Shown here: positions 8,806-50,436 of the stretch, piece by piece
Layout of the letters: each line of letters starts with the position of its first letter
Numbering within the stretch: the stretch's first letter is position 1
Virus record (IMG/VR): IMGVR_UViG_3300046817_000857
Location: 1-50,966 of that record
Strand: one strand, 5' to 3'
DNA length: 50,966 bases
Source: a virus
Lineage: Duplodnaviria > Caudoviricetes
Made by a program: the position numbers and the translations under genes
The notes under the pieces: model-generated
Database searches by the model: none
What the model was told of the DNA's origin: nothing
The model's input: the letters and a program-made list of their open reading frames with translations, nothing else

Positions 8806-8806
8806 C

Positions 8807-20964: not shown

Positions 20965-22127
20965 CAGTACGGGCTGTACCCGGCTCCCCAGTCAAAGGAA
21001 AGGTTTGGAGAATACTCGAAGTTGGGCCCAACACCGTAGCCGCCACGAGTTCGAAGGAAGTCAGGAGTGACGTCGTTTACGGTAATGCCTTCGTTGCCAT
21101 CGGCTTTACGAGCTTCCATTATCATGTTATTAGCAAGCTGGATTTGCTGATTAGCCAAGGCCTTATCGCCCGAAAGCTGAAAGGTTAGTCGAGCAGCAAG
21201 AATATGAATCCAAGCATCTTGAAAGAGAGGATCCATTGTATTAGGATCAGTAACCTGTCCATTGTAACAAAGAATGGCCTGGGTTTGATTGCAGAGAATT
21301 ACTCGCTGGGAGATACCGGTAAAGCTCAAAATAAAGGTAGCCCCAGTACCATTGCTTGGGAGGGTAGTGATACTACTAACAGCACGACCTTGAGAAACAG
21401 GATTCGACTGCGCGGAGAAGTAGCTGCCGCCAAGAGGAGCAGATTCGCCCGAGACTTGATTAATGATGGCTATTGAAGTGATAGTTCCGCCAATTCCAAT
21501 ATCAGTGACTTCAAAAAGAGCAGGAGCCCCGGCATTCATAGTATAAGTCGTAAGACTTTGTGGTTGCCCAACTGGAGCAGAGTTTTGCACAAACGTATAG
21601 GTTGGCTGGGGAAGAAATATAATGTCGCCCACTTGGTAGTTAATCCCTGGGGATACAATCACAGCATTTACTACGCTGAGGAAGAAATCGGTGGCAACAA
21701 CAAACTTCAGTGCAGGACCTGTCCAGCCAGTTTGCCCTGCGCCGGTGACGGTCCCAGCGGGGTAGATCGGAACACCGCCTGCCTGGGTGGTGTACTGAGG
21801 GATAATCATCCTTGCACGGATGCAATCAGCAGGATATTGATACTCATACGACCAAGGTTGCGGAGGCAGACCGCGCTGCCAAAGTGGCGCACCTGCGGTG
21901 GGATTTTCTGGATTGCCTGGGATAGTCGAGATATAAACAAGTGGTGCCCACCTTGTTGTGCAATCCCAAGGAGCCATACGAATTAGATCGTCTCGAAGCT
22001 GAAACATGATAAGCTGACATTGGATCGCCTCGTTCGAGGTTTGGTTATTGAACTCAGCCTGGGTCATGTTTGTGCGTGAGCCCATGGCCTGCAACGCACG
22101 ATTAGCGATATCAAGATTAGTGGTCAT
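20964..22127 (-). CDS. Tail tubular protein A / adaptor with internal insertion
   Basis: LDIANRAL..MG, W.YEYQYPADC, DPLFQDA...LAARL. Longer than typical because of a beta-rich insert. Confidence 0.85.
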   Translation of the reverse strand: MTTNLDIANRALQAMGSRTNMTQAEFNNQTSNEAIQCQLIMFQLRDDLIRMAPWDCTTRWAPLVYISTIPGNPENPTAGAPLWQRGLPPQPWSYEYQYPADCIRARMIIPQYTTQAGGVPIYPAGTVTGAGQTGWTGPALKFVVATDFFLSVVNAVIVSPGINYQVGDIIFLPQPTYTFVQNSAPVGQPQSLTTYTMNAGAPALFEVTDIGIGGTITSIAIINQVSGESAPLGGSYFSAQSNPVSQGRAVSSITTLPSNGTGATFILSFTGISQRVILCNQTQAILCYNGQVTDPNTMDPLFQDAWIHILAARLTFQLSGDKALANQQIQLANNMIMEARKADGNEGITVNDVTPDFLRTRGGYGVGPNFEYSPNLSFDWGAGYSPY

Positions 22128-22139
22128 AGTTTAAGTTTT

Positions 22140-23327
22140 CTATGTTGGGGAAATAGTTGTTGTATTTGTACTTCCAATCGCACTCGCATTTACAGCTATA
22201 TGAATATTCGGTCCAACAACCCCTAGATCGGCGCCAGCACGCGTTGCTATCATATACTGATTGGCAGGGTTGCCATGGAGATATCCAACGTTTCCGATGA
22301 TGCTGAAAAGAGATGTGCTATCGATATCAGCAAAGATGTGCGCTCCCGCACTTCCGGTATTGTCGATGTTATCGCTAATACACATGTTCGTAATCCATCT
22401 GCCGTTGGCATCGTTTGGGACATAAATACCCCGTGATGTATTCGATGTTGTTTGCCCCTGGAATTCATTTCCATTGATTATGACGTTGCTTATAGAGCCA
22501 GTTGCTCCAGCCCGATTAAACTGAATCCCGGCAGCATTGTTGTTAGGAGCGCCGATACCTTCAATACTGTTCCCAATTATCATCACGAGGCTAGAAGTCG
22601 CCCCATTAGGGAGATTAAGAATAATCCCGCCTAACTGCGCAAACATCTTATTGTTGATAATCCTGGCTCCCCCTGACGTGTTCAAAATTATAGCTGTCCC
22701 ATTAGTTGGCGCAAACGTATTGCCATCAATACTATAATCGCCTGCATCAGTGTTGGTTGAATTTTGAACTATCAGTCCATTCCCTCCATTTGTTCCATAA
22801 GCGTCAAAAAGACATGCGCGTATGGTAAAATATACTGATCTATTAATTCCGATACATGTATCCGCATTACGGATATATAAATTATCAAACAAGCAATGTT
22901 GGGTATAACTTGCAGTAGCGCAACTCAAAGTAATTGCAGTTGTAGAAGCCGTAGCCGCTGACGGATAGGCAATCGCTAAATCCTTAAGTTCCACGCTAGC
23001 TAACGAAGCAAGAACGATATTGATACCATTGATCCCAACAGTCGGAATTATCACAGACGGCGGGGTGGTTTGGCCGCCTGCACCACATCCCATAAGCGTG
23101 ATCGGGCTGGTGACACTTAGAGCAGTGGTTATTTTGTACGTTCCAGTAGGGAAGAAAACGATTCCTCCCCCTGCTGATTGCGCGGCATTGATTGCGTTTT
23201 GAATTGGGGTGGTATCATCGGCAACGTTGTTGCCCACAGCGCCATAATTGTCTTTGACGTTGTACCATCCGCTTAACGAAGGTGCAGCAAAGATACCGTC
23301 CTGGCGAAGATAATTTGTCATTGTCAT
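22140..23327 (-). CDS. Tailspike-like right-handed beta-helix (pectate_lyase_3-like) depolymerase
   Basis: YNVKDNYGAVGNNVADDT.PIQNAINAA..GGGIVFFPTGTY and Asn ladders; visibly AT-richer DNA. Confidence 0.82.
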   Translation of the reverse strand: MTMTNYLRQDGIFAAPSLSGWYNVKDNYGAVGNNVADDTTPIQNAINAAQSAGGGIVFFPTGTYKITTALSVTSPITLMGCGAGGQTTPPSVIIPTVGINGINIVLASLASVELKDLAIAYPSAATASTTAITLSCATASYTQHCLFDNLYIRNADTCIGINRSVYFTIRACLFDAYGTNGGNGLIVQNSTNTDAGDYSIDGNTFAPTNGTAIILNTSGGARIINNKMFAQLGGIILNLPNGATSSLVMIIGNSIEGIGAPNNNAAGIQFNRAGATGSISNVIINGNEFQGQTTSNTSRGIYVPNDANGRWITNMCISDNIDNTGSAGAHIFADIDSTSLFSIIGNVGYLHGNPANQYMIATRAGADLGVVGPNIHIAVNASAIGSTNTTTISPT

Positions 23328-23875
23328 CCACCTACTACAATATAGCCAAAAGTTCGATCAACACGAGAGTTATTTGCATGGGTTACTACAAACTGCCCGG
23401 TTCCAGGGACGATTGAAGTTGTAGCCATGTCGTTTGCAGCATCCTGCGTTTGTGGAGAGAGGACCACAAAGCTTGATGTCGAGCAATTCGCTACTGTTAC
23501 AGTTGTAGTAGTTGCGTTTGCAGTAAGGGTAAATGTTCCTACGCTTCTAACGCCAGCACTCCATGTCATAGGCGTGCCTGCACCGGCAGAAGTCGGCACC
23601 TGTCCAGCAACGCTGGGCGTGACTGGCAGATAGAAATTAGAGTTGCCACTGACTGTTGATCCTGTCACAGCATACCATGTCGCTTGTCCTCCAGCAGCGC
23701 CAGTTACCGTTCCGCCCCCACCTCCACCACCGGAGAATGAAGTGAATGGCACCGCAGAAGGTGGAGCGGTGGTTAAACTTCCACAGACTGTATTTGGTGG
23801 AAACACACCATTGCATTGGGCCTGCGCCAAGCTGGGGGCAAGAAGCAGAGCGATGATAAGAAGGAGCTTTCTCAT
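23324..23875 (-). CDS. Signal-peptide fibre-like protein
   Basis: MRKLLLIIALLLAPSLAQA|QC, poly-Gly linker, fibre-type GQVPTSAGAGTPMTW. Confidence 0.75.
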   Translation of the reverse strand: MRKLLLIIALLLAPSLAQAQCNGVFPPNTVCGSLTTAPPSAVPFTSFSGGGGGGGTVTGAAGGQATWYAVTGSTVSGNSNFYLPVTPSVAGQVPTSAGAGTPMTWSAGVRSVGTFTLTANATTTTVTVANCSTSSFVVLSPQTQDAANDMATTSIVPGTGQFVVTHANNSRVDRTFGYIVVGG

Positions 23876-24300
23876 GATTGGTTTGTCCAGCCACGTAAGG
23901 TATTAGATGGATACAGAACGAAGCCGCCATAAGCGGAGGTGATTTGGATCGAGGGCAGGCCCATTATGGTTTCAGCCACAGAATTGGATTGGATTGTGAT
24001 TGGATTCGTACCACCATACCCACCAATGTCTACAATTCCGATCGAGTTCTTAGCATAGTTACCGGGGAGAACGCCTGCGGGCACAGTAGGGTCAATCGCA
24101 GAGGGTAAGATTATAATCACGTCCCCCGCGACGTTTACGTGGACGAGATTAGTACTTGGATCAAGGGTGTAGGTACCAGCGACGGTGATAGTAAAAAGGT
24201 TTCGCGCTGGGACTCGCACCCAACCTACACTAGGACCGAGATAGAAATCGACCCATTCGCGGGAAGTTCCGCCTTGATCAAGGTCCAGTTGGGAGGACAT
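23872..24300 (-). CDS. Hypothetical virion-associated protein (fibre-like beta domain)
   Basis: AGGAG SD; IIILPSA...IVDIGG...NPITI...ETIMG...YGGFVLYP resembles fibre C-terminal modules. Confidence 0.65.
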   Translation of the reverse strand: MSSQLDLDQGGTSREWVDFYLGPSVGWVRVPARNLFTITVAGTYTLDPSTNLVHVNVAGDVIIILPSAIDPTVPAGVLPGNYAKNSIGIVDIGGYGGTNPITIQSNSVAETIMGLPSIQITSAYGGFVLYPSNTLRGWTNQS

Positions 24301-24301
24301 C

Positions 24302-24568
24302 TTATACTCCTGGAGGTATAGGATTAGGTGTAGTGGGTAAAATAGCTTCGGCAAGCGCAACTAGTGATGCAGTGAGCGCAGCTAATTCGGCTCCATAAGT
24401 TTTAGCCGAGAAGCGATGTGCATCACTAGTTGAAATACCATCTCCACACCAGTCTGTTGCTTGAGCAACAGGCCACCGATTGAATGGCGCTTGACTCATG
24501 GTGGGCGCTGCGAAGCGGCACTCGTTTGCCGTGTGATAGAAAATACAAGTGCCGCAAGTATCGGCCAT
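24302..24568 (-). CDS. Small Cys-rich protein (CxxC..C..WCG)
   Basis: TCGTCIFY...ECRFAAP...WP.....DWCG, a probable metal-binding motif. Confidence 0.65.
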   Translation of the reverse strand: MADTCGTCIFYHTANECRFAAPTMSQAPFNRWPVAQATDWCGDGISTSDAHRFSAKTYGAELAALTASLVALAEAILPTTPNPIPPGV

Positions 24569-24570
24569 AA

Positions 24571-24765
24571 TCAGTGCCTTCCTTGCGATCCGCAGCAACC
24601 GTGGTTGGATCCACCGATCCCGACGCTCTGGCTCATCTGTCCAGACGGGCCCTTCGGTGGGGAGTAGGGAAGTTCCTTGGCCTGGGTTACCCCACCCGAC
24701 GACGCCGTGGGGCGTTGGTTGCTGGGGGAATCAGGGCCGTATTCAGAGAGGATATCCCGAGCCAT
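24571..24765 (-). CDS. Hypothetical protein
   Basis: GAGGAGG SD; packed operon. Confidence 0.65.
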   Translation of the reverse strand: MARDILSEYGPDSPSNQRPTASSGGVTQAKELPYSPPKGPSGQMSQSVGIGGSNHGCCGSQGRH

Positions 24766-24993
24766 TTATACCTCCTCGGTGCGCCGGAAGAACGGGGTGG
24801 GACTGGGTGTAGGAGTGGGCTTCTCGGCCTCAACTTTCTTTGCCACCGCATCGGCGTTCTCCTTGGCTGCGCCTTCTGCATGGACTTCGAGTTCACGCTG
24901 CGCAGCATCGGTCAGTGCCTTCAACCTCGGCCACTGGTGAGCCAGATCCGAAATCGAAAGCAACTTATGCACCGCATCCCAGTTAACACTCAT
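24766..24993 (-). CDS. Hypothetical protein
   Basis: GAGGAGG SD; packed operon. Confidence 0.65.
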   Translation of the reverse strand: MSVNWDAVHKLLSISDLAHQWPRLKALTDAAQRELEVHAEGAAKENADAVAKKVEAEKPTPTPSPTPFFRRTEEV

Positions 24994-25226
24994 GTATGCC
25001 TCCTCTGGCTTCCGCCGTGGTGGATGGTTTTCCCCGAGTCCTTCGGGGCCTCAAAGCCTCGACCGGCGTCCATGGAGATCGAGGAGCCGTGGAGGATCTT
25101 TCCGGTGTCGGTTGCGTGGTTGCCGAGGGCCTGGCCAATTTGACTCACGCCCGCAGGGGAGATTGCATGGGCTCGAGGCTCACGCTTCCCAGCGCTTACT
25201 GAGTTGTGTCCTGATCCTTGTCGCAT
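24990..25226 (-). CDS. Hypothetical protein
   Basis: AAGGAG SD; packed operon. Confidence 0.6.
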   Translation of the reverse strand: MRQGSGHNSVSAGKREPRAHAISPAGVSQIGQALGNHATDTGKILHGSSISMDAGRGFEAPKDSGKTIHHGGSQRRHT

Positions 25227-25600
25227 TCACCATTCTCCTTTGGTTTGGTTAGCAGCCGTGTGTGATCCCAGCGATTCTCGGGATCGGATGCCATGTCGCG
25301 GCGGACTTTGTTGAACGTCCCGCCTTCGGCATTTTGCTCCGTCATCAGCTGGCGGAAGCGGTCGTCACAGCGTTCCATTTCCCGGAGTTGGTGGACTGGA
25401 ACAACGTGACCGAGTTCTTCGTACATGTACTTAATGTCATGAAGATCGTGCATGTAGTTCATAAACCGCCGGATCTTCTCCGGGACTTCCTTCTCCGCCT
25501 CGCTGATGTAGAAGATCACCTTCACCATCATCTCACGGATCATCTTCATCTCGCGGGCGATGCGTTCGAGGGTTACTTCCTGGGGAGTGTCATCTGCCAT
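25196..25600 (-). CDS. Hypothetical protein
   Basis: TGATG stop/start overlap with the upstream gene. Confidence 0.7.
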   Translation of the reverse strand: MADDTPQEVTLERIAREMKMIREMMVKVIFYISEAEKEVPEKIRRFMNYMHDLHDIKYMYEELGHVVPVHQLREMERCDDRFRQLMTEQNAEGGTFNKVRRDMASDPENRWDHTRLLTKPKENGECDKDQDTTQ

Positions 25601-26103
25601 CAGACCCTACGCGTTTCCGGCTTCTTCGCCTGGAGTTCTGCGTTCTGCATCATAAGTTCGGCGAGTTGGGCTTGGAGGGCATCGAACTCCGCACGGCTGA
25701 CACCGGATTCGGTGACAGTCACGGCTGGCACCGGCATCTTGGAGGTAAGCTCCGCCAGTTGCTTCTCCAGCGAGCCCAGAAGGCTGGCGCTGAAGCCCTG
25801 ACCGGGGAGGGATTCGATCGGATGTTTCCAAGACGCAGCGTGCTGGGCAGAGATGGCCTCAGCCTCAGCGTCCAACGGATCCATCGCTGGGGTTGGGGTG
25901 CCTTCGAAGATCGAGTCGGTCGCCAGCCCCTTACCCTCAAGGCAGACTAACGTCTCAGCCTCGAAGTAAAAGGGGACTTTGAATCGCTTCCGCCGCTCAC
26001 GGCCATTGACTCGATCGGTTTCCTTGTACTCCCACTCGACCTCGTCGAGATCGGGCGGGCGGCCGTAGAGGTAGTGTGGTTCGGTTAGTTTCCAACGAGC
26101 CAT
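25600..26103 (-). CDS. Hypothetical protein with C-terminal coiled coil
   Basis: AAGGAG SD; ends ETRRV. Confidence 0.75.
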   Translation of the reverse strand: MARWKLTEPHYLYGRPPDLDEVEWEYKETDRVNGRERRKRFKVPFYFEAETLVCLEGKGLATDSIFEGTPTPAMDPLDAEAEAISAQHAASWKHPIESLPGQGFSASLLGSLEKQLAELTSKMPVPAVTVTESGVSRAEFDALQAQLAELMMQNAELQAKKPETRRV

Positions 26104-26708
26104 TGTGTTCTCCTTAGAGTAAGCAGGGCTAAAAGGCCAGCGGCGAAGAGTGGGAGCGCTGGAGGCAACGGGGTGACTGTCGGAGGATCGACTGCTGTGC
26201 CGGTCAGATCGGTGAATTTATTCTCCCAGCTATAGTAGATATCGTAGTCGGTCCAATTATCCAGGAGGCCATTTCCAAGGGCGCCGCCCCCGACCGAGAA
26301 CTGCAATTCGTTGTATTCGAACAAGAAGAAAAAACTCCAACTCTGCCCGTCCTGGGAAAGATTCCAAATGTGTCCTCCGGGAGTAGTAGCACTATTAAAA
26401 TTGGTGATGAGCGCCTCGGGGCCGGGAATGGTATAGTTCGAAGTGTCGACGGTGAGATTGTAGGCCGTAAGCACGCCGTCCACGACGTCGACTGTGCCGG
26501 TCAGTGATTCGGTCACGCTGGAAACCGTGCTGGGGGCACAACCGCTGGGAAGGCTACTGCATTGCGGATTGGGGGAATAGAAGTAATTCTCAAGATTCGC
26601 ATCGTAGAACTTGGTATGAAACACCCCGTCGATGTTCCAGGTCGCGGCATTTGCCTGTTCAAGGGACAGAAACAAAAAACAAGCTATTACAAGATTTCGA
26701 TAGGTCAT
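26085..26708 (-). CDS. Secreted protein with VPLPA/PEP-CTERM-type exosortase sorting signal
   Basis: Signal peptide (ANA|AT); C-terminal VTPLPPALPLFAAGLLALLTLRR (Pro motif, TM, Arg cluster). Confidence 0.75.
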   Translation of the reverse strand: MTYRNLVIACFLFLSLEQANAATWNIDGVFHTKFYDANLENYFYSPNPQCSSLPSGCAPSTVSSVTESLTGTVDVVDGVLTAYNLTVDTSNYTIPGPEALITNFNSATTPGGHIWNLSQDGQSWSFFFLFEYNELQFSVGGGALGNGLLDNWTDYDIYYSWENKFTDLTGTAVDPPTVTPLPPALPLFAAGLLALLTLRRTQWLVGN

Positions 26709-29700
26709 GGGGTCATTCCAAAGCCGTGCCGGATGTAGGGATTGATGCCGTTGTTCGCAGTCAGAGCCGGGTCCCAGTTCCACCTTGCGTTGTTGAGCGC
26801 GGCTGTCATGTAGCCGTCGATCGTTGCCGTCAGCCCGAGCGATGCAGCGTAGGTTTCCGCCGTTCTTTCAGGATTTGGATAAATCGTTGTTGGAGAGCAA
26901 GTGTACGAATACATCGTTGTACTCGAAGCCGTTTGATTTGGTGAAACCTGCCAACTCGTACCGGACCCTCCTGTGATCGTGGTGTTTGCGGTAACGCCAG
27001 GACCGGCGAGATTCTGTCCAATCGCGATGGGGCCGTTTATCAATCCGCTTGTTGCAAGATTATTGGGTGCAGTTATTACTCCGGTGAATTGCGCTCCAGT
27101 ACAGAACGTATTGGGAGTCCAGATATTGGCTGCACCACTGCCGGGGATACCACCAGGAGAGTCGTTTGTTCCACCGCTATCTCCTGGGGAGGGCGCAACA
27201 GCGCCATCAGGCCAGTTGAAAATGACATTATCGGTGAAGCTTAAGTTATGCACACCATTGGTGTCTATGGTCGCAACAGTGAGTTGCCAGCCAGTCAAGT
27301 TTGCCACTGCGTCAACTCTTATTTGAAGTCCACTTGCGCCCCCAGGAGAAGCCGTCAGCACGTCATTAACAACATAATTCGTGCCGGTACTCACTATCCT
27401 ATAAAAGGTCATTCCGCCCGGCGTGGTTTCGGCACCGGGGTCTGACCCAGTGAGAAGAGACCATTTTATGTGATCAGTATCGGTGCCTGCAATGGCGGTC
27501 CATGTCCCATTGTAAGCAGATGGGGTTGCGCCGGTGACTGTGAACTTCTCCCCTACATGAACACCGTAGGTGAAATCGTTGAACCCAGTCGTCCCAGTAG
27601 CAGTGGCTTCGTAGAACCCAGTGCCACCATTAAGCGCCCTCGTAATTCCGGTGAAACTCTCAAGAGCGAACGCAGCGCGTGCTCCTGCCCCAGCCATGCT
27701 CCCACTAAAGTTAGTCAGTGCAACGCCGTCCACAGGACCGAAGTTCACATTGGCAGGAACGGCTGGGCAATACGGAGACGCGAATGTAGTGCCGTAATAT
27801 CCTGGAGTCCCGCCAGTCCCAGCAGCAGTAAGCGTGGTTCCTTCTGTGTTGATACTGGGATAACCTGAAACCGGCGTCAGCACATCTCCAACCAGAGAAG
27901 TTCCAGCAAGTTGTTCTGCCAGAATCACATCAGTGATGGAACCACTTGCGACCGTTATAGCAAACGTCGATAATGTACTGCTGTGCCCTCCAGTGAAAGT
28001 TCCTGTGCCACCAATACAGCTATAAATTCCTGCTGTCCCTCCAGTCCCCGGATTTGACGCGATTGCAGTAGACACTTTTCCATTGAAGCCGTCAGCTGCG
28101 GCGTACCATGAAAAGGGGCTGACAGAACCATCCAAGTTAGCAATTAGATTATTTGTGGCCACCACATCGTTGGAATTGTAAAATTGTATACCCTGAGGAG
28201 GAGTTCCATTCGGAGTAGAATAAAATGACATGATGACATTGTTTGTAGCAGTCGTATTGCTGTCCAAGGTTGGATCGCCCTCAAAATGACCAACATCAAA
28301 GCCGTAAGTTCCGGCATATGTAAAATTATTATCGATGGTGCCGCCGCCACGAAATTGAAAATCTTCCGATCCACTCCTAGCACTGGTATTTCCACGCCTA
28401 CTGCCACGAACGGCATTCCATTGAAGATAGGCGTTTCGCGATGTTGTATTGCCAACCGTCAGACTTGCATCATTGTATCCACATAGGTCCAGTACGTTCT
28501 CATCAACCTGAAATCCGGTAGACATGGGTCCGCCGCCGGGTGTCGTCAGACTGCCCCCGACTGGATTTATAAGGTCAGCATTGATACCAAGAGCGCGGTT
28601 TCCGTAGCAGTGGTCCGTTTGAGAGCGTCGAATAGTGATATCGTAATTTTGTGCAAAGTCAGCAATGTTTATGCCATCGGAGTACCATTCAGCACGGACG
28701 TCCTCAACCAAAATACCAATCTTTTGTCCGGGGATTGAAACGGCTGTAGTAGGATCGACCACGTTGCCGGAACCGACATACTCACCACTTCCGGGGTCAC
28801 GCTGCGCTGAGTAGAAATGCAGACCCATTAAAGCAATATAATTTCCCGCCCCCTGAATTTGGATTCCTGCGCGTGCTGAATATAGATGATCGTTTCCTGT
28901 ACCCTGCATAGCTGCGTATGCTGCCGTTGCGCTTGGGCTTTTAATAATGGGGCGAGCCCGCGCCCCTGACGGGAGGTCTGGAGATGTCGCTGGAACGGCC
29001 TCGTCATAGGCCCCAACAACTAACGGCTCTAGTTCAGAGGCACCCCCGAGAGGAAAATTGTCCGATCCGCCCGCGATGCTCCATCCTCTCTCTAATGACT
29101 GCCCGGTAAAGGTGTCTCCCATTCGCAGCAGGAGCCAGTCGGGTTTTCCAGAGCGCAGCGCAAACCCGTTTCCAGCCCCTGCCGTGTGCCAGTTACCAAT
29201 CGTGCCAAGGCCAGTGCCGTCGCCATTGAAGACGGACGAACTGCCCGTGTTGTTAGGGTCATATAATCCTGGTCCTGTGCCACCAACGCCCTTGGTAAGC
29301 GTCTTGACTGGGCCATGGATGCCGGGAGCAGCAGATGTATACGCCATAGTCATAGGGCCGGTACAGGAACCAGAGCAAGTCAATGTCCCACTCGCATCAG
29401 GCAACCCGGTGCGGCTGGTCATCTGCACGAGCTTCTGGCTTGTCACGCTCACTGCGACGGTAAAGGCCTTGCCGTTAGGGCTGGTGTAAGTGTCACCCGC
29501 CACTGGGCTGGTGTTGGAGCTTAGGACGAACTGCTCTGTCGTATTATCGTCCACGAATGTCGGGGTCGAGCCGTCACGAAGATCACTCCCCATCGAGTCG
29601 GAGACATAGATAATGTTGGTGAACGCAGCGCTGGGCAACGTGCCGTCGCTGGGACCGATAGCCGTCCAGCCAGACGCAGTGGTGGAGCCATAAGTGCCGA

Positions 29701-30100
29701 GAGCTAGCCCTGGGCCACCAGCAATGGTCACATTAATCGTGAAGTTCCCAGGCGTGACCGAGGGGGTAGTGCCGGACACCGATATAGTGATCGGAATAGT
29801 TGGGTGGGTCGCGTTAACGAGGTTGGTGTTGTTGGCAACGGTGACCACGCCAGTTGTCGAATTGATCTGAAAGACGCTGAGAGCGTCGGTCAGAGACCAC
29901 GATGGGGTGCCAGTGAAAGAACCAACAATCGAGGCCGACCCTAAGAACGTGCCGTTGGCCGACATCTCCACAATGAAGGTGTTGGAAAGCGCAATGGTGT
30001 TCGGTGGCGGCGGGGCGGTTCCGCTGCCATGAATCCATGCCACCGCAGGAAGAAGGCAGACATAGAGGGCTACAATCGAGACGAGGAACAGCCGTTTCAT
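26705..30100 (-). CDS. Large secreted protein: cadherin-like domain plus right-handed beta-helix (polysaccharide lyase-like) with Gly/Thr-rich inserts
   Basis: Likely start MKRLFLVSIVALYVCLLPAVA; FQINSTTGVVTV (cadherin-like); IIYVSDS.GSD...PVKTL.KG...PDWLLLRMGDTF; Asn ladders. Confidence 0.75.
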   Translation of the reverse strand: MKRLFLVSIVALYVCLLPAVAWIHGSGTAPPPPNTIALSNTFIVEMSANGTFLGSASIVGSFTGTPSWSLTDALSVFQINSTTGVVTVANNTNLVNATHPTIPITISVSGTTPSVTPGNFTINVTIAGGPGLALGTYGSTTASGWTAIGPSDGTLPSAAFTNIIYVSDSMGSDLRDGSTPTFVDDNTTEQFVLSSNTSPVAGDTYTSPNGKAFTVAVSVTSQKLVQMTSRTGLPDASGTLTCSGSCTGPMTMAYTSAAPGIHGPVKTLTKGVGGTGPGLYDPNNTGSSSVFNGDGTGLGTIGNWHTAGAGNGFALRSGKPDWLLLRMGDTFTGQSLERGWSIAGGSDNFPLGGASELEPLVVGAYDEAVPATSPDLPSGARARPIIKSPSATAAYAAMQGTGNDHLYSARAGIQIQGAGNYIALMGLHFYSAQRDPGSGEYVGSGNVVDPTTAVSIPGQKIGILVEDVRAEWYSDGINIADFAQNYDITIRRSQTDHCYGNRALGINADLINPVGGSLTTPGGGPMSTGFQVDENVLDLCGYNDASLTVGNTTSRNAYLQWNAVRGSRRGNTSARSGSEDFQFRGGGTIDNNFTYAGTYGFDVGHFEGDPTLDSNTTATNNVIMSFYSTPNGTPPQGIQFYNSNDVVATNNLIANLDGSVSPFSWYAAADGFNGKVSTAIASNPGTGGTAGIYSCIGGTGTFTGGHSSTLSTFAITVASGSITDVILAEQLAGTSLVGDVLTPVSGYPSINTEGTTLTAAGTGGTPGYYGTTFASPYCPAVPANVNFGPVDGVALTNFSGSMAGAGARAAFALESFTGITRALNGGTGFYEATATGTTGFNDFTYGVHVGEKFTVTGATPSAYNGTWTAIAGTDTDHIKWSLLTGSDPGAETTPGGMTFYRIVSTGTNYVVNDVLTASPGGASGLQIRVDAVANLTGWQLTVATIDTNGVHNLSFTDNVIFNWPDGAVAPSPGDSGGTNDSPGGIPGSGAANIWTPNTFCTGAQFTGVITAPNNLATSGLINGPIAIGQNLAGPGVTANTTITGGSGTSWQVSPNQTASSTTMYSYTCSPTTIYPNPERTAETYAASLGLTATIDGYMTAALNNARWNWDPALTANNGINPYIRHGFGMTP

Positions 30101-31362
30101 CAGTGTAGCCTCGATGTGTCGATGATACCGCTGGATTGGATCAGACCGTAACCACCAGGAGAGGGATGTACGCCATCGGCCGTGGAATAGAAATCGGTCC
30201 CATCGACAATCCAAAGCGAATTGTTCGTGCCAGTTCCGAGAATGCTGGACGTATTGTAGGAGCCGCCAGGAGGGCCTACGGTGGCGGCCAGCAAGTCGGT
30301 GTTGAATCCTGCAACACTGGTTTGGAACGCGGTCGTCATCTGATCGACCGTTGTCGTCCAATTATTGGCCATATCGGTTGTCCAAGGAATTATCGTAGTT
30401 TGGATGATTGTCTTGCTGCCGATCATGTTGGCAGTCAGGGTCGTGTACATAGTGGCCAAACTGGCTTCCATCACTGCAAGCGACTCACCATCGGCAGCGA
30501 AGTTGTTGTGGCCGTAGCCACTGATGGCGCTGGTGCAGTATTGCAGCTCTTTATCACGCTGGGTATGCCCAGCGTTGAAACGCGAGGAGGTATCATTGCT
30601 GATGCCCATGTTAACGTAGCCAAGAGTGGGTCCGACGGACCTAGCGAGTATTCCAACGTCGCCGGAAGTCCCGGAATATACATCGTGCGCGCCATCCACG
30701 ATGCTGTCACCGAGCAGGCAGACCGATGCCTGGGCATTAGGAACCTTTCCGACTATTGTCAGGGGGAACGACATGAACCCAACTGTAAGCGGGACCGTGC
30801 CGCAGTCCACCGTATGGTCGGCTATGCCGCTGACCCCAACATCGATCAGGTCTCCGGTCGCCCAGTCTCCTACTTCGTCGGAATAAATGAGGCCAGAGGC
30901 GTTGGTGAGATACTCCCCAACGAAGAACTTCGTATTTGTTGGGATGGTTATATTTATGGGATCGGACAGGACATCGGTTCCCTTGGCCACGGTAACCGAG
31001 GACATTCCGGAGAACGTCAGCGGGTGGCACACTCCGACTGGGTACTCGACATCGCCCTTGATAACGCAATCGGAGCCAGGAGCCGACTCGACATCGGTGG
31101 AGATGAATACATACCAGCAGCCGAAGCGGACTTGAAGGCTAGTTACTGCGGTGCGGGTGTAGTGAAACGACCGAGCCATCATTTGGTTGTTTGAGGTGTC
31201 GTATGATGCCAGGAGTTTGCCCCGGGTGGCGACCAGGCCTGTGTAGTTGATGGCGCCAGCGTTGAAGATATTGAAGACCTGAGCATAGGCCATCCCGGAA
31301 ACGAGGACGATCAATGCGGCGATAGATATTAGACGACGGTACCGTACTCGCAGGTCGATCAT
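30100..31362 (-). CDS. Secreted SGNH/GDSL hydrolase (carbohydrate esterase-like)
   Basis: Signal peptide (AYA|Q); block I LLGDSI, block II GIS, block III GHNN, block V DGVHP. Confidence 0.82.
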   Translation of the reverse strand: MIDLRVRYRRLISIAALIVLVSGMAYAQVFNIFNAGAINYTGLVATRGKLLASYDTSNNQMMARSFHYTRTAVTSLQVRFGCWYVFISTDVESAPGSDCVIKGDVEYPVGVCHPLTFSGMSSVTVAKGTDVLSDPINITIPTNTKFFVGEYLTNASGLIYSDEVGDWATGDLIDVGVSGIADHTVDCGTVPLTVGFMSFPLTIVGKVPNAQASVCLLGDSIVDGAHDVYSGTSGDVGILARSVGPTLGYVNMGISNDTSSRFNAGHTQRDKELQYCTSAISGYGHNNFAADGESLAVMEASLATMYTTLTANMIGSKTIIQTTIIPWTTDMANNWTTTVDQMTTAFQTSVAGFNTDLLAATVGPPGGSYNTSSILGTGTNNSLWIVDGTDFYSTADGVHPSPGGYGLIQSSGIIDTSRLH

Positions 31363-32270
31363 CAGAAACCCCAGAAGGTATGTGCGTTCGCACTCAGCGT
31401 GTCCATAGTGCTTGAGCTTGGCCCGTCGTTCCAAGCACCTACTTCCACAACAGACCCATTCAAAAAGCTGCTTGCGCCCCCAAGCTGGAATTGCGTCGTG
31501 AGAGTGCCGTTGCCGCAGTCTACGATGTTGGGAGCGGTGCTGTTGATGTGGATGTCTGACGAGGTGCTGTTCCCGAGGACTGACAGAGAACCCCAATTCC
31601 CGTCTAGCCCGCTACCGGAAGCTAACTGATCGAAGCTACCGAAGACACAAAACACTTCATTGGCCGCACCACTCAAATTAACCCCCACCGAAGGACCGAG
31701 GTCCTGCCGCGCAGCTGTAAATGTGTGGTTGAAAACATAGTTAAAGACATATGGCTGAGAGGGACCTGTAAAACTTAACGGAGACTGATAGACGGCGCTT
31801 GTGCCATTGAAGGTGAGACATGGACTAGATGTCAGCCCCGAGCAGCTGACTGTTAGAGTAGCTCTGCTGGCTATCGTGTTCTGGACAAGATCGCAAGAAC
31901 CAGTACAGTTTCCACCCGCTGTCTGGTCGTAGATTTTCTTGACCGTGCAAACGACTATGGAGCAGTCTGAACCACCAATCGTAGTAATGACAAGAGCGCC
32001 GGTTGTCGCATCGCTAATCATGTCTGCGCATGCGACGTCGGCTACGTTGCAGACATTGATGGCTGCGTTGCCTCGCGTTGCTGAACTAAAGGCGCGCAAA
32101 CCACTCCATGCCAACGGGGTTGTAATCCCAAGATCACCGGGACCGATATAGCTGCCGCCACCGCCTCCACCGGGAGCGCCTTTCCCCGCACCTGTCATGG
32201 GGACTTGCGCCTGTGCAAGACAGAAGAGCCCAAGACAGAACAGGGTTATGGATACGATGCGATAGATCAT
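31362..32270 (-). CDS. Secreted concanavalin/LamG-like protein (arabinofuranosidase-B catalytic-like)
   Basis: Signal peptide (AQA|Q), poly-Gly linker, AWSGLRA...VKKIYDQT...LVQ.T...R, FLNGSVVEV; 10 Cys in the mature part. Confidence 0.65.
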   Translation of the reverse strand: MIYRIVSITLFCLGLFCLAQAQVPMTGAGKGAPGGGGGGSYIGPGDLGITTPLAWSGLRAFSSATRGNAAINVCNVADVACADMISDATTGALVITTIGGSDCSIVVCTVKKIYDQTAGGNCTGSCDLVQNTIASRATLTVSCSGLTSSPCLTFNGTSAVYQSPLSFTGPSQPYVFNYVFNHTFTAARQDLGPSVGVNLSGAANEVFCVFGSFDQLASGSGLDGNWGSLSVLGNSTSSDIHINSTAPNIVDCGNGTLTTQFQLGGASSFLNGSVVEVGAWNDGPSSSTMDTLSANAHTFWGF

Positions 32271-33949
32271 GGCACTCTTTGAACGTATGTGATGTTGCCG
32301 GACAGATCGCCCGAACCAGACTGGAACAGGCAGAGATCGTGGGCTGCTGTGTTCGTCAGAGCTATAGTCCCAGCTCCACTGCCTTGGGTTTCACCACCGT
32401 TCGCAGCAAGGGAAAGTCCGTGTGTTGCGGTGGTGGCGCCGATGACTGCTTCGGCGGCGGTATCGCACTCGGTTGATGCCTTAGTGCCATCTGCGATCGA
32501 CCATATCGTGGCGGCCGAAGCGATCAGATGGAGGGAGCAGATGTAAATCTTCTGAGAGCTAGCAAGTGACACGAGCTTGATTGTCGTAGTTCCGGTCATG
32601 GATATTGGAACATTGGTCTTGGCCGCGAACATGCAGGGATCGGCGGCGGTCTGATTATTGGCGAGCACGACCGGGGAGCTAGCCGACATCGCGGCTTGGC
32701 CATTGCTGTTCGCGTTGGTCACCGACACGCCGTTGGTGGTACCAGGGGTGGTCTGGTCGATGCGGACGTTGCCAATGATATTCGTACCAGCGGGAATGGG
32801 CCCGGTGATGGCGGAATAGAGAGCATTGCCGGTTGTGTCAACATCGATGATCTGGGCGCGCTTGGTGGTGAGACGCGCAGTGCCTTCCTGTCCGGTGGTG
32901 AGCGTAGCAGAATCATTAAACACGCCACCACTGGGGACAAAGACAGACATCCCAGCAGTCCACGCTGCCGCATCCACCACGCTGACGCCGGAGCCAGAGC
33001 AATTGCCACAGGTGACCGCAAGCTCGTTGCTCGAGTTGACGTTGGCGCCACGGGCGTTGCCAGCAGCATCGCGGATGATTCCGTAGGCGCCCTTAGTGGT
33101 GCCAGAGGCGCGGTCCCAGGTGGTGCCGTTGAACAGCCAAGAGGCCACGGCGCCGGTGTTGTTGCCGTTAACGCCATCGGCCAGCGCTAAAGCGGACAGC
33201 CAGTTCTGCGTGTTGGTACCATCGCTCATGGCAACTCGGACGGGATTGCCGACAAGCGCGGCACCAGTGGCGCCAGGGCCAACGACCTGCGCGTTGAGAT
33301 TGGATGCCGTGGCCTGCGTGACGGCCGTGGTCGAGCCAGTGTCAATAACAGCGTGGAGATTGGAGCCAGTGGCTTGGCCTACGACCCAAGGGGAGGTGCC
33401 TTGTGTCACAGAACCACCTCCGCCGCCTCCTCCACCTCCACCAGAGCCAGTGGCGATGCCCGAGCCACCAACCATATTGACGGTCGTGGTCGAGGTCGAG
33501 GTGATACAGGAGAGTTGGGTATTGGCACCGACGGTAAAAGCGAACCAGCTATTGGGAGGAATAAGCTGGTCCGAGGTTGTTGCTGATGCGCCTAGTTTAC
33601 AGTAGGCGCCATTGGTCGCGCCGACATTCGAAGCAACGACAACGGTACCGGAAGGGAGGGTACCAGTAGCGCTGACGGTGCTAACGGAGATCGGCGTTCC
33701 GGTAGACTGAACGGTGGGAAAGCCGGAGATGGTTGCGGTGGCCGAGACGGTTGCGTTAACGCAAAGGGCACCAGTTTCATCCATCGTGCCGAAGCCCTGC
33801 GTGGCAGCGAGGGATTGTGCTGCGCAGGTAGGGACAACGACGAAGCCACCAACAGTTACGCCCGCAGGTGGGGGCATGGTGAAGTTCTGAGCCTGGGCTG
33901 GCGCTAGGCCCAGGAGCGCGGAGAATAGCGCCAGCCAAAGCTTTTGCAT
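32267..33949 (-). CDS. Secreted fibre-like/adaptor protein
   Basis: Signal peptide (AQA|Q), long Gly linker, VTQGTSPWVV, FNGTTWDR, IPAGTNIIGNV fibre-type motifs. Confidence 0.72.
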   Translation of the reverse strand: MQKLWLALFSALLGLAPAQAQNFTMPPPAGVTVGGFVVVPTCAAQSLAATQGFGTMDETGALCVNATVSATATISGFPTVQSTGTPISVSTVSATGTLPSGTVVVASNVGATNGAYCKLGASATTSDQLIPPNSWFAFTVGANTQLSCITSTSTTTVNMVGGSGIATGSGGGGGGGGGGSVTQGTSPWVVGQATGSNLHAVIDTGSTTAVTQATASNLNAQVVGPGATGAALVGNPVRVAMSDGTNTQNWLSALALADGVNGNNTGAVASWLFNGTTWDRASGTTKGAYGIIRDAAGNARGANVNSSNELAVTCGNCSGSGVSVVDAAAWTAGMSVFVPSGGVFNDSATLTTGQEGTARLTTKRAQIIDVDTTGNALYSAITGPIPAGTNIIGNVRIDQTTPGTTNGVSVTNANSNGQAAMSASSPVVLANNQTAADPCMFAAKTNVPISMTGTTTIKLVSLASSQKIYICSLHLIASAATIWSIADGTKASTECDTAAEAVIGATTATHGLSLAANGGETQGSGAGTIALTNTAAHDLCLFQSGSGDLSGNITYVQRVP

Positions 33950-33958
33950 TTGAGTCTC

Positions 33959-34411
33959 CTAGCTCGAGCTAACGCACATATAGGCGATGGTGTTGTTAGC
34001 GGTCGAGGTTTGGGTGATGGTTAGGGTGGTAGTGGCAGTGGCATAGGAGAGGGCCGCAAGGATTGCGGACTTCGGGGTCAGGAGACAGACCGGAGCGGTG
34101 ACGAAGGGCGTGCCAAAAGTGAGTACGCAAGAGGTGGTGGCGGAGGTGCCAACGGTGATGACACCAGCGAAGTCGGTGCCGACAACAGAAGGGGAGGTCG
34201 TACCGCAGTTGGCTGCCGCCACCGTCGGGGGTGGCCCACCTCGGGTTGTAGTGAGGAGGTGGTTAGGGAGGTAGATGTTATTAGAGGTGTCGTAGCCGAT
34301 AAGACCGGTTGGGTCCTGAGAGAGTTGGACTGCTTTGTTGATGTTCTGGGCATAGGTGAGGGCCAGACCAAGAGCCAGGATCACAGCCGAGGGGAGAAAG
34401 AGATTCTTCAT
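33959..34411 (-). CDS. Secreted Thr-rich beta protein
   Basis: Signal peptide (TYA|Q); GTDFAGVITVG...C.LTF..PF..AP.C; 4 Cys. Confidence 0.75.
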   Translation of the reverse strand: MKNLFLPSAVILALGLALTYAQNINKAVQLSQDPTGLIGYDTSNNIYLPNHLLTTTRGGPPPTVAAANCGTTSPSVVGTDFAGVITVGTSATTSCVLTFGTPFVTAPVCLLTPKSAILAALSYATATTTLTITQTSTANNTIAYMCVSSS

Positions 34412-35052
34412 TGTGGTGCCTCCGTCCAGCGGAATGTTACGTTGAGAAGAGCAGTGGGTGAAGTGGCGTTGAGGTTCACGCAGATCTGCTGCGCTGCACC
34501 ACGTAGAGTTGGGGCTTCCGAGAAGGTCCGTTCGGCATAGTCGAACAGGACGTAGGGGGTTACCGCCGCACCAACGGTGGTTGCGACCAAGCCAAGGTTG
34601 GCACTGCTGATAATGCCGGGGGCAGAGTCAGGGATGGTAGGGTTGGCCGTGTAGGAGACGAGGGTTGCGGTGGAGGTTGGGTTGGTACTGTCCAAAGCGT
34701 AGGCTACAGGGAGGACAGCGTTGGTGCCGGGGGTGCCACCGGTATCGGCGGAGGCGTTCTTCTTGATCAGCACAGGGATGGAGATAGCTGTGCCGGAGCC
34801 GCTGACGCGGACCGATTGAACACGGATCACACGAGTAGCAGAGCCTGCGATACAGGCGATGTCAGTGGCAGAAGCAGCAGGGATGATACCTACGCCGGTA
34901 GCAGCGTAGGTAGCGACGGAGGGTTCCTGAACACAGGTGACGCCGACTTGTGGGACGTTGTTAACGCCACCAACGCCAACGCAGGAGACCTGAGCTTGGG
35001 CCGCCCCCGCAAACGCGAGGGAAGCAACAAGGGCAAGGAGAAGTTTCTTCAT
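34408..35052 (-). CDS. Secreted beta-sandwich protein (decoration-like)
   Basis: Likely start MKKLLLALVASLAFAGAAQA|Q; 4 Cys; directly follows the cement gene. Confidence 0.75.
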   Translation of the reverse strand: MKKLLLALVASLAFAGAAQAQVSCVGVGGVNNVPQVGVTCVQEPSVATYAATGVGIIPAASATDIACIAGSATRVIRVQSVRVSGSGTAISIPVLIKKNASADTGGTPGTNAVLPVAYALDSTNPTSTATLVSYTANPTIPDSAPGIISSANLGLVATTVGAAVTPYVLFDYAERTFSEAPTLRGAAQQICVNLNATSPTALLNVTFRWTEAPQ

Positions 35053-35053
35053 G

Positions 35054-35587
35054 TTAGTTCGCCACCGTGATACCAGCAGGGTAGCCGCCGAGGACCGCGT
35101 TCTTGGTGGATTGGTACATTTGATCGTGACGGTCAAGGACGATGTAGGCTGCGATGGTCGGGTTGCAGGTGGAGACGGTGGTGTAGACCAGCTTAAGGAA
35201 GCGCGGGACGGCAACGCCAGCGGGTGGACGAGGCATATCCATGTCCATCAGGCGAGCGCCAACGACAAGCTGGGCGGTGGTATAGGCTGGGGAAACCCAC
35301 CAGACGGAGAAGGTGGAGGGGACGCCAGCGGCAGTGTCGATGGCGCCCTCGAGGGTGACAGTCATCGAGGTGCCAGTGGTGGCAGCGGTGATGACCTGGA
35401 CCAGGAGCTTGAGGGCTGGATCGTCGCCGATGCCGATATCGCGAGCTTGGCCTACGCCAAGGATAGTCGCGGAGGTGGTTGGCAAACCAAGGTTGCCAAG
35501 GTCGATGATGTTTGCGGAGTCTTGGGTGGTGCCTGACGCCGTGATGAGAGACCCGGTGTCGAAGGCAAGGAGTGCGTCGAGGATCAT
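35054..35587 (-). CDS. Capsid cement/decoration protein (Bbp16-like)
   Basis: MILDALLAF...SANIIDLG...RDIGIG...RFLKLVY; directly after the major capsid gene. Confidence 0.82.
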   Translation of the reverse strand: MILDALLAFDTGSLITASGTTQDSANIIDLGNLGLPTTSATILGVGQARDIGIGDDPALKLLVQVITAATTGTSMTVTLEGAIDTAAGVPSTFSVWWVSPAYTTAQLVVGARLMDMDMPRPPAGVAVPRFLKLVYTTVSTCNPTIAAYIVLDRHDQMYQSTKNAVLGGYPAGITVAN

Positions 35588-35601: not shown

Positions 35602-36645
35602 TTAAGTGAGCGCGGTTTCGTTGTTGAGGATGGCGTCACAGGTTCGAATCGGGATGCCGCGGAAGGTGGTGACGGGTTTGCCATCGAACTCCTCGATGCG
35701 GAGGAGGACGTTGGTTTTGTTCATAGCCTGAAGGTCGAGGTAGGTTCGGACGACACGGTTGCAATAGATGACACTGCGACCCATATTTGCGCGAACCTCG
35801 GGAGTGTCGGAGGTCTGGATGGTACCGGCTGAAACGGGCTGGGTCGGGAGTTTGTAGATGGCCCGGACCAGGAGATTGATAAGGTTCGCTGCGGACACGC
35901 CGGTGAGCTGGGTGATGTCGATGTTCGCGATACGGACGATATAGCGCCAGTCGCGGAGGACGTAACCGATCTCCCATTTAAAGTGATCGCGGTAGGCTTG
36001 ATAGGTGTTGCCCGAGGCATCGGTTACCGGCCACTCACCCATGTCACGGTGCTGGAGGCCGGTGATCTTGCCCTTGGGGAAGGTTGCGTGGGCGGTATCG
36101 TCGCCCCAGACCTTGAGCCAGATCGAGGTGTTGGTCGAGGCTGCGCCGCCGCCATCGAGGACGTTGTTGGCGGTTTGGGAACTGGCGGTGGTCTTAGTGG
36201 AGTATCGAGGGGACAGCCCGGTGAACCGCTCTGGGTTCACGAACTGGTTCCCGTAGATCATTGTCGCGGCGATCTGCTGGGACATACCTTCAAGGAAGGC
36301 CTTGACTTCGGAGAGCCGGAACTCGGCGGTGTTGCCGTTGAGATCCGCGATGTCCTTGTCAATAACCGAATACGTCTCAAGATTACCGCACGTATCCACA
36401 ATCTGAGCCGTGGTGCTTTTTGCATTCGGCACACCTTGATTGAGCAGGCGCCAAGTGGCCTGGGGCAGGCCAGTTCGGACGGTGGTCTTGTGCCCGGTTG
36501 GGAGGTTCCCCTCGACGACCATCATGTCCTCGAGGATTTCGTTCGTCTGGGAAAGGAGCTCGATGATACGGGCGACCTTGTATCCGTCATCAAGCCGCTT
36601 GGCCCAGTCTGCGTACGTCAGCGCGACGTTGCCGATGGTAGCCAT
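35602..36645 (-). CDS. Major capsid protein (BPP-1 Bbp17/epsilon15-like, HK97 fold)
   Basis: LTYADWAKR, IIELLSQTNEILED, GNLPTGH.TTVRTGLP..TWR, DWRYIVRIANID, FRGIPIR.CDAI. Confidence 0.95.
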   Translation of the reverse strand: MATIGNVALTYADWAKRLDDGYKVARIIELLSQTNEILEDMMVVEGNLPTGHKTTVRTGLPQATWRLLNQGVPNAKSTTAQIVDTCGNLETYSVIDKDIADLNGNTAEFRLSEVKAFLEGMSQQIAATMIYGNQFVNPERFTGLSPRYSTKTTASSQTANNVLDGGGAASTNTSIWLKVWGDDTAHATFPKGKITGLQHRDMGEWPVTDASGNTYQAYRDHFKWEIGYVLRDWRYIVRIANIDITQLTGVSAANLINLLVRAIYKLPTQPVSAGTIQTSDTPEVRANMGRSVIYCNRVVRTYLDLQAMNKTNVLLRIEEFDGKPVTTFRGIPIRTCDAILNNETALT

Positions 36646-50217: not shown

Positions 50218-50436
50218 ATGAACGACCTAAACGAAGTCATGCGCCGCCTCGCCGAGGGCATCCCACCCTCCCCACCGGAGATTGAAATCATCGTGGCTGA
50301 TATCCGTCGGCAGCGTGCGATCTACGAATCCGGTGGGAAGAAGGCCCGCTCAATCGATGACGATGCCCTCGCGGATGTGATGAAGGTGATCAAAGGGGCA
50401 CAGCCACCGAAGGCACCGCTAAAGAGGAGGTTCTAA
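50218..50436 (+). CDS. Hypothetical protein (full-length copy)
   Basis: AGGAGG SD; ends PLKRRF. Confidence 0.8.
   Translation: MNDLNEVMRRLAEGIPPSPPEIEIIVADIRRQRAIYESGGKKARSIDDDALADVMKVIKGAQPPKAPLKRRF

Follow-up and report, generated by a model that had tools for sequence, protein, structure and literature searches.

A late-operon block of predicted Sec-exported, cysteine-paired proteins between the capsid and tail-tube genes of an epsilon15/BPP-1-like podovirus and its relatives

The IMG/VR virus record IMGVR_UViG_3300046817_000857 was analysed over its entire length of 50,966 bp, which we refer to as the window, and represents an epsilon15/BPP-1-like podovirus at a completeness of 100% (CheckV). 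Its minus strand carries a podovirus late operon, in which the genes for terminase, portal, scaffold/protease, major capsid protein (phrog_212) and cement protein are followed by a block with eight open reading frames (ORFs), p1 to p8, whose products all begin with a predicted Sec-type signal peptide (leader). Behind this block lie the genes for tail tubular proteins A and B, four internal virion proteins and a few small genes. We find that the block between the cement and tail-tube genes is best explained as a host-envelope interaction module whose members are made as Sec precursors. The genes of the block and its borders are, in operon order:

35602-36645: capsid gene of the window
35054-35587, minus strand: cement/decoration protein, 177 aa, no leader, phrog_427; upstream border of the cassette
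34408-35052, minus strand: p1, 214 aa; leader, disordered Cys-bridged linker and jelly-roll knob; part of the conserved core of the clade
33959-34411, minus strand: p2, 150 aa; leader and small Cys-paired domain (4 mature Cys); second conserved member
32267-33949, minus strand: p3, 560 aa; leader, N-terminal domain, G10 linker, fibre-type repeats and a C-terminal Cys-paired domain of ~120 aa
31362-32270, minus strand: p4, 302 aa; leader, G6 linker and ConA/LamG-like (arabinofuranosidase-B-like) domain
30100-31362, minus strand: p5, 420 aa; leader and predicted SGNH/GDSL esterase
26705-30100, minus strand: p6, 1131 aa; leader, 8 mature Cys, probable immunoglobulin-like domain and beta-helix
26085-26708, minus strand: p7, 207 aa; leader, domain, and a C-terminal Pro-rich motif, hydrophobic helix and RR (PEP-CTERM-like tail)
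25600-26103, minus strand: conserved leaderless protein, 167 aa; closes the variable block
23872-24300, minus strand: T4 gp10-like adaptor, 142 aa, no leader; directly upstream of p8
23324-23875, minus strand: p8, 183 aa; leader, Q-C-x-G...C-G motif at the cleavage site, G7 linker and small beta domain
22140-23327, minus strand: leaderless pectate-lyase-like beta-helix protein, 395 aa; translationally coupled to p8
20964-22127, minus strand: tail tubular protein A-like, phrog_394; downstream border of the region

An earlier, sequence-only reading of this DNA had described p1 to p7 as coupled or closely abutting genes behind a cement gene and p8 as an eighth gene at 23324-23875, and all of them were confirmed on the minus strand at these coordinates. 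Neighbouring genes overlap by 4 nt (p1/p2, p3/p4, p6/p7 and adaptor/p8) or by 1 nt (p4/p5 and p5/p6), with gaps of 1 nt between the cement gene and p1 and of 9 nt between p2 and p3, and the cement assignment held as well, its profile matching the PDB chains 8cjz_B (‘Capsid Decoration Protein’, 9.5e-10) and 3j4u_H (‘cementing protein’, 2e-4). All eight N-termini have a basic n-region, a hydrophobic core and an AxA-type site, and six of the eight end in A-x-A/Q, the slash marking the cut. Leaders were called with a heuristic of our own (best 10-residue Kyte-Doolittle mean of at least 2.2, net positive n-region, small residues at -3/-1), and the calls rest on it together with the comparative evidence. 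The heuristic flags all eight ORFs, in agreement with the signal peptides read earlier from the sequence, and three further minus-strand ORFs (37679-37987, 37403-37639 and 8807-9163); a stricter earlier rule picked out none of the 122 plus-strand ORFs with 70 aa or more and, among 97 minus-strand ORFs, one shadow ORF. The heuristic undercounts, since several unflagged neighbours in relatives show obvious leaders. The mature parts of p1 to p8 contain 4, 4, 10, 10, 6, 8, 2 and 3 Cys, respectively, which agrees with the earlier counts and supplies the one left uncounted there, the 8 of p6. Poly-Gly linkers, likewise noted before in three of the proteins, are G10 at residue 170 of p3, G6 at residue 34 of p4 and G7 at residue 49 of p8.

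When comparing the mature Cys counts of proteins from 91 clade loci, we found that 167 of 217 unique leader proteins have an even, non-zero number, 31 an odd number and 19 none, as opposed to 256 even and 320 odd counts among 846 leaderless proteins; Cys density is 1.88 per 100 aa in the leader proteins vs 1.01 in the leaderless ones. The domain of p1 offers a comparison within one family. Among the 150 best of the 3552 representatives of this knob family, 42 of 66 leader-bearing members have the C67+C191 pair, but only 8 of 84 leaderless ones (odds ratio 16.6, p 1.5e-12), and the appearance of the Cys pair together with the leader is as predicted by export to an oxidising compartment. Because the proteins counted in the 91 loci are mutually related, p-values for the parity comparison overstate independence; the contrast is large nonetheless. 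In the alignment of 30 p1 family members the leader is kept in all 30, and A20, Q21 and the four Cys are invariant, while the core sequence of the leader varies around the fixed A-x-A/Q and four Cys. Such a pattern is expected of a cleaved signal rather than of an interface, since the leader sequence drifts and only its n/h/c character and the cut site are kept. Judged from their sequences, the leaders are typical Sec signals conserved across hundreds of relatives, and export with oxidative folding in the periplasm is very probable. The sequence-only reading had taken this as the shared premise of two alternatives, either a virion appendage whose parts are exported and attached to particles at or after lysis, or a secreted toolkit that remodels host glycans, and the premise is strongly supported by leader conservation, Cys parity and the Cys pair accompanying the leader.

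The individual proteins differ in how far they can be assigned. p1 has 645 homologues at E of at most 1e-3, and the 120 listed are all about 196-218 aa long, on contigs no longer than 54 kb. Its AlphaFold2 (AF2) model, with a predicted local distance difference test (pLDDT) score of 78, is a beta-sandwich with the leader as a lone helix, and the same domain forms the C-terminal knob of repeat-rich, fibre-like proteins of 278-1082 aa at 34-41% identity, most of them leaderless and some leader-bearing; the relatives of one of these, P0260, lie on viral contigs of 5-143 kb. The p1 model gave weak matches to jelly-roll capsid folds in PDB (E of at least 4e-3, template modelling (TM) scores 0.15-0.35) and a single high-probability one, the turret of a Haloferax tailed virus (probability 0.99, TM 0.59 by target). 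With PDB matches this weak apart from the turret, the fold class of p1 can be named and a specific relative cannot. We also considered p1 as a paralogue of the cement protein and rejected this at the sequence level (hhalign probability 0.05%). p2 has 14 homologues in 27 examined relatives, at 33-60% identity and with the leader retained. p3 has no match in Pfam or PHROG; short stretches of its repeats match the fibre proteins P0254 and P0184, and its C-terminal domain also stands alone in relatives, as a leader protein of 133-145 aa.

Two assignments of the sequence-only reading were borne out by family and fold searches. Its LamG/arabinofuranosidase-like fold belongs to p4, which matches viral clusters that carry PF09206 (Atlas feature score 0.98, TM 0.75); in one of these clusters there is a fusion to PF11367, a Pfam family with the label Tail_completion_gp17. 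Its SGNH esterase is p5, which is predicted as such from PF13472 (Lipase_GDSL_2, 1.1e-7, 32.9 bits, exactly the cut-off), phrog_8480 (2e-33) and visible GDS and DGVHP blocks. The cadherin-like domain with beta-helix, proposed for p6, survives as a weak lead, with Atlas hits to He_PIG and Beta_helix scoring ~0.8 against a bar of 0.9. p6 has no PDB, Pfam or PHROG match, and it is 31% identical over 370 aa to a leader-bearing 547-aa protein of a relative (L054); a PDB sequence search with p3, p4, p6 and the adaptor profile returned nothing below E 0.09. The last 40 residues of p7 resemble the end of the NCBIfam XDP1 ‘exosortase-dependent surface protein’ (E 0.0095, 15.9 bits, cut-off 125). Three homologues of p7 are listed, all three with the tail, and the leader is present in both full-length ones, the third being an N-terminally truncated identical copy; a scan of the relatives gave no further convincing PEP-CTERM-like tails. 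For the conserved leaderless protein at 25600-26103 we found a homologue in 21 of 27 relatives and no family match. The predicted domains of the block (fibre knob, ConA-like lectin, SGNH esterase, beta-helix, pectate lyase and S74 chaperone) are of the types that make up phage receptor-binding proteins and depolymerases.

In IMG/VR the capsid protein has relatives on at least 592 stretches, and the best 80 of them are 84-99% identical to it. At 40 loci, on 34 distinct contigs, the sequence continues for 6 kb or more downstream from the capsid gene. We examined these loci, calling genes with a greedy ORF picker that preferred leader-giving starts, and used the identical procedure on the region preceding the capsid gene and on the other strand as a control. 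Two or more leader ORFs lie downstream of the capsid gene in 38 of 40 loci (range 1-7), compared with 0-2 upstream, and of the unique proteins, 197 of 553 were flagged on the downstream side and 20 of 443 on the upstream side. In 11 outgroup loci with a capsid identity of at most 68%, including Bombella and Saccharibacter prophages, Gastranaerophilales, BL94 and others, 0-1 leader ORF lies between the capsid and tail-tube genes. Conservation of synteny and signal peptides in related phages, named as a check in the sequence-only reading, was seen at these loci, and that of the leader in the p1 family as well. The usual gene order begins with capsid, cement and small conserved leader proteins (p1-like, p2-like and the 133-145-aa protein like the p3 C-terminus) and continues with variable leader proteins, the conserved leaderless protein, the small adaptor, a large leader protein and the tail tube. 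Turnover within this order is pronounced. A relative that is 97-99% identical to the window in capsid, cement, p1 and p2 (strain G001) has a different gene set at the position of p3 to p7 and a 510-aa protein at that of p8, and by sequence comparison the block is swapped even between strains with 99%-identical capsid genes. The cassettes of relatives also hold a leader-bearing BNR_4 protein and a Big_7 protein. With p1 and the adaptor we obtained no tblastn match among 50,697 cultured-phage records, the whole region gave no megablast match, and tblastn with two N-termini of the types B and C introduced below gave one marginal match, to a Bradyrhizobium phage tail fibre and outside the motif of these N-termini. 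Across the clade the capsid protein varies unusually little (84-99% identity in loci L021-L095); the adjoining cement protein is 42-67% identical, and the portal of locus L012 78%. This last locus has, between its capsid and cement genes, a 164-aa ORF (8915-9409, plus strand) that is absent from the window and may encode an HNH-type homing endonuclease. The metagenome-assembled genome bins that contain relatives disagree on the host (Terriglobia, Terracidiphilus, Telmatospirillum and others).

The small leaderless protein encoded directly upstream of p8 gave an AF2 model with pLDDT 78, and Foldseek matched this model to the N-terminal domains of the CBA120 tailspike TSP4 (2.5e-5, residues 1-335) and to the T4 baseplate chain 5iv5_AC (8.9e-4), each at probability 1.0 and with TM 0.53-0.56. 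The N-terminal domains of CBA120 TSP4 and T4 gp10 are docking platforms for other tailspikes. p8 itself is a short form of leader-bearing, tailspike-like proteins of 438-776 aa in the relatives, which bear Pect-lyase_RHGA or Peptidase_S74 domains (S74 21.6 bits, cut-off 22). In an alignment of nine p8-like proteins the leader is kept in all nine and Q, C, G, C and G are invariant right behind the cut site, with the rest of the sequences unrelated. We examined 43 unique large leader proteins (at least 380 aa) for the gene that precedes them. Where the N-terminus is p8-like (type A), the gp10-like adaptor precedes in 11 of 11 cases; where it is of type B or C, a second family of small proteins precedes in 6 of 7, and for the remaining one (L038, type C) no gene adjoins on the upstream side. 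In three loci (L067, L068 and L072) the adaptor is fused to a fibre of 803 or 565 aa, and no leader protein follows there. The C-terminal domain phrog_11393 (‘tail fiber protein’) is common to the fused, leaderless fibres of the first two and to leader proteins elsewhere. Type B and C N-termini share a D-x-S/T...A-S/T-T-x-F/Y-V motif found in 10 of 3215 unique locus proteins, of which eight are flagged as leader proteins, a ninth (L086) has a leader-like N-terminus missed by the rule and one is a leaderless protein of 927 aa; we take it to resemble a tail-fibre N-terminal motif, and treat this as a lead only. A prediction of the complex of three gp10-like adaptors with three mature p8 chains returned ‘no answer’ (score 0.00) and was counted neither way. 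Synteny and fusion are the grounds for proposing that the adaptor may bind the neighbouring spike.

What else in these genomes could bind a receptor differs from phage to phage. The window encodes one leaderless candidate, the beta-helix protein at 22140-23327 (Pfam PF12708, 1.2e-12, and tail-spike PHROGs), and a domain homologous to it sits within a leader-bearing p8-like protein of another locus (L028). In G001, which is 99% complete, and in G003, which has direct terminal repeats, all large non-core late proteins bear leaders and the other strand holds replication genes only, and beyond the recognised core parts we found no leaderless receptor-binding candidate in either genome. A cultured phage provides an analogy. 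The GenBank record of the Cellulophaga phage phi18:3 (Pachyviridae) annotates gp085, gp086 and gp087 as structural or as tail components ‘based on experimental MS/MS proteomics analysis’ (MS, mass spectrometry), and all three have Sec-type leaders, compared with none of the nine other MS-annotated proteins that we translated. This phage, short-tailed like that of the window, has three adjacent large leader proteins, and the likeness consists in the leaders and the annotation; it differs in its Bacteroidota host and in the 0, 1 and 3 Cys of gp085-gp087.

From these observations we propose that the leader proteins are exported, fold oxidatively in the periplasm and then dock onto particles at lysis, a reading to which we assign a probability of roughly 0.45. 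Late in infection the precursors would be exported and the leader cut, mostly before Gln, after which Dsb-type oxidation in the periplasm would form the disulfides. Once the holin breaches the inner membrane, particles built in the cytoplasm would meet the exported proteins, and the p8-like tailspike would dock through its new N-terminus on the leaderless T4 gp10-like adaptor already on the tail. p1, p2 and the proteins with the p3 C-terminal domain may join the particle too. Before lysis, the same enzymes could act on surface glycans of the infected cell, and the PEP-CTERM-like p7 and the Wzy_C-like membrane proteins found in relatives would stay with the envelope and never enter the particle. 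We favour docking on account of the adaptor synteny, the invariant new N-terminus, the homology to fibres, the genomes with no other candidate and the phi18:3 annotation, and attachment of leader proteins to the particle is argued by analogy with gp085-gp087. The p8-like proteins show the features of the tailspike class in their predicted sequences, namely a conserved N-terminal part, a variable C-terminal part and the domains of the class; tailspikes of that class are leaderless and cytoplasmic, and p1 to p8 and their relatives carry predicted leaders.

Several points weigh against docking. The leaderless beta-helix protein at 22140-23327 could be the real tailspike of the window phage, and another relative, G002, carries a leaderless fibre-like ORF of 390 aa. 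The pairing of adaptor and N-terminus can be explained by simple linkage of adjoining genes, the Cys counts run across homologous proteins that are not independent, and the MS annotation of phi18:3 could reflect co-purifying proteins. The block also contains members that cannot be virion parts, namely p7 with its PEP-CTERM-like tail and the polytopic Wzy_C-like proteins at L022 13578-14693 (3e-6) and L055 8449-9345 (1e-5), both below the Pfam cut-off. Enzymes of the Wzy_C family include protein O-oligosaccharyltransferases, which makes a periplasmic glycosylation of the exported proteins conceivable. In a further locus (L090 15253-19029), the block holds a leaderless 1258-aa protein with a GH5 cellulase domain (9e-61), so the slot houses glycan-active proteins both with and without leaders. 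Finally, we know of no route by which a tailed phage adds exported parts to its particle.

The alternative that fares best is that the block is a secreted toolkit and nothing more: exported enzymes and lectins would strip, modify or mask the capsule, exopolysaccharide (EPS) or O-antigen of the host, none of them joining the particle, and the phage would gain easier release, progeny that do not stick to debris, or a block to superinfection. We regard this explanation and these benefits as possible and as a serious competitor. It accommodates the glycan-active content (the p5 SGNH esterase and pectate-lyase domains, with GH5, BNR_4 and Wzy_C-like proteins in relatives), the exosortase-type sorting tail of p7 and the leaderless beta-helix protein that the window phage retains as a possible virion spike, and its topology is simple, requiring no new assembly route. 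It leaves unexplained, however, why the p8-like gene always abuts the gp10-like adaptor gene and is absent from loci with an adaptor-fibre fusion, and why an invariant motif stands exactly at the cut site; it would leave G001 and G003 without any receptor-binding protein, and Sec by itself reaches the periplasm only, not the cell surface. A bacterial precedent exists in WceF of Pantoea stewartii, a leader-bearing, tailspike-like EPS enzyme that, according to the available part of its description, combines a tailspike-type fold with modification of a glycan biofilm (PMC7949094); unlike the cassette, WceF is a cellular gene in an EPS cluster and not a phage late-operon gene beside a tail adaptor. 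Weighing both, the first alternative of the sequence-only reading, exported virion appendages, gains for the p8-like proteins through their adaptor/tailspike slot, their conserved mature N-terminus and their standing as the only receptor-binding candidates in two near-complete genomes, and the second, the toolkit, fits p7 and the Wzy_C-like proteins; the composition of the block is for that reason probably mixed.

It is very unlikely that the hydrophobic N-termini go unused for export, with Sec saturated or shut off late in infection or the helix serving as a cytoplasmic docking or trimerisation element. Such a scheme would agree with established knowledge that tailed phages assemble in the cytoplasm, and with the lone helix that the leader forms in the p1 model, but it is contradicted by the even-Cys bias and by the Cys pair that accompanies the leader, and the free drift of a leader that keeps its n/h/c character and A-x-A/Q fits a cleaved signal. 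Still less credible are auxiliary metabolic genes (AMGs) or morons, that is, host-derived secreted carbohydrate-active enzymes (CAZymes) that feed the host or convert a lysogen and have nothing to do with the virion, as soil-virus CAZymes are usually interpreted and as the available part of a prophage survey might suggest with signal peptides on 5% (3261/64,678) of prophage CAZymes (PMC13507307), given that we found no integrase or repressor in the window, that the genes overlap within a late operon with no excess of promoter-like (13 vs 11.9 expected) or terminator-like sites (15 vs 16.2), that the G+C content of the block (0.53-0.60) is like that of the remaining genome, that the 120 listed homologues of p1 are on phage-sized contigs only, and that the architecture is fibre-like rather than that of free enzymes.

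Several known systems share features with the block. In the epsilon15/BPP-1-like podoviruses (Uetakevirus, Rauchvirus and Caulobacter phage BL94) the gene order is the same, from terminase, portal, scaffold, capsid and cement to tail tube A/B and internal proteins, and the capsid protein of the window is 49-56% identical to those of such phages (phiV10 and BL94). The cement and tail-tube genes of BL94 are one small gene apart, whereas the window clade has 2-13 kb of leader-bearing genes inserted there. The anchor-branch systems of CBA120 TSP4 and T4 gp10 resemble the p8 slot in having a small gp10-like domain beside exchangeable tailspike-like proteins with a conserved N-terminus. All known partners in the CBA120 and T4 systems are leaderless cytoplasmic proteins, whereas the adaptor partner of the window clade has a predicted cleavable Sec leader and paired Cys. 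Phage proteins that leave the cytoplasm by host export and function at the envelope are also familiar (Lom and Bor of lambda, Llp of T5 and Sp of T4); unlike the cassette, these are single small genes, are not virion-type fibres and do not form a hypervariable block in the receptor-binding slot. We found no account of exported virion appendages in tailed phages in the literature, including the available parts of PMC11924767, PMC3556154, PMC3765740 and PMC13507307, and no paper discussing the leaders of gp085-gp087. The sequence-only reading, which knew of no described podovirus system of either type, calls for one qualification, the phi18:3 record and its three leader-bearing, MS-annotated proteins. 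Nearest in print is the prophage CAZyme survey already mentioned, which, in the part available, interprets the proteins with signal peptides as secreted carbon-cycling enzymes (PMC13507307).

Outside the block, the plus strand carries the replication genes, which encode a family A polymerase, a UvrD-type helicase, a PD-(D/E)XK nuclease and a uracil-DNA glycosylase (UDG). The UDG-plus-3'-5'-exonuclease part (3110-4126, plus strand) and the family A polymerase part (4352-5836, plus strand) are separate ORFs with a small ORF, 3981-4355, between them, and there are no tRNAs in the window. The termini of the record overlap each other at ~94% identity: positions 1-300 repeat at 50235-50534, running on into the ORFs 267-1250 and 50501-50965, and the repeat contains the start of the PD-(D/E)XK nuclease gene twice, in diverged form. 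Repeated ends of this kind suggest that a circularly permuted genome of ~50.2 kb was assembled with wrap-around, from mixed strains. The three flagged ORFs outside the block are likewise on the minus strand. The first (37679-37987, 102 aa) has a leader-like N-terminus and is 94% conserved in strain G001, and the second (37403-37639, 78 aa) has a membrane-like hydrophobic N-terminus; both lie between portal and scaffold. The third (8807-9163, 118 aa, Sec-type leader, 3 mature Cys) lies just past a 1969-aa internal protein and adjoins two small unassigned genes (7936-8817 and 7541-7939); it has no family match, and its product may be an exported lysis-related protein.

In its fullest form, the docking proposal would make the entire outer host-recognition layer (tailspike, accessory fibres, p1 and p2) a product of a second compartment, exported, disulfide-bonded and possibly glycosylated in the periplasm, where it would earlier strip the infected cell of its own receptor, and then snapped onto particles within seconds of holin opening. 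We consider this extended version unlikely as a whole, and put it forward as a speculation. Textbook tailed-phage assembly is wholly cytoplasmic. If the proposal is true, assembly would span two compartments in a large soil clade (at least 592 IMG/VR capsid-related stretches and 3552 p1-knob representatives), the timing of lysis would be an assembly step, host Sec and Dsb would be dependency factors of the phage, and disulfide-stabilised spikes could account for persistence in harsh soils. Pipelines that take a leader as a reason to drop a protein as non-structural, or to score it as a secreted carbon-cycling AMG, would give host-range determinants the wrong label, and recombinant production of such depolymerases would require periplasmic or oxidising conditions. 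Under the toolkit explanation too, a conserved yet strain-variable block of exported glycan-active proteins in the late operon of a lytic phage would represent a new kind of phage-host interface.

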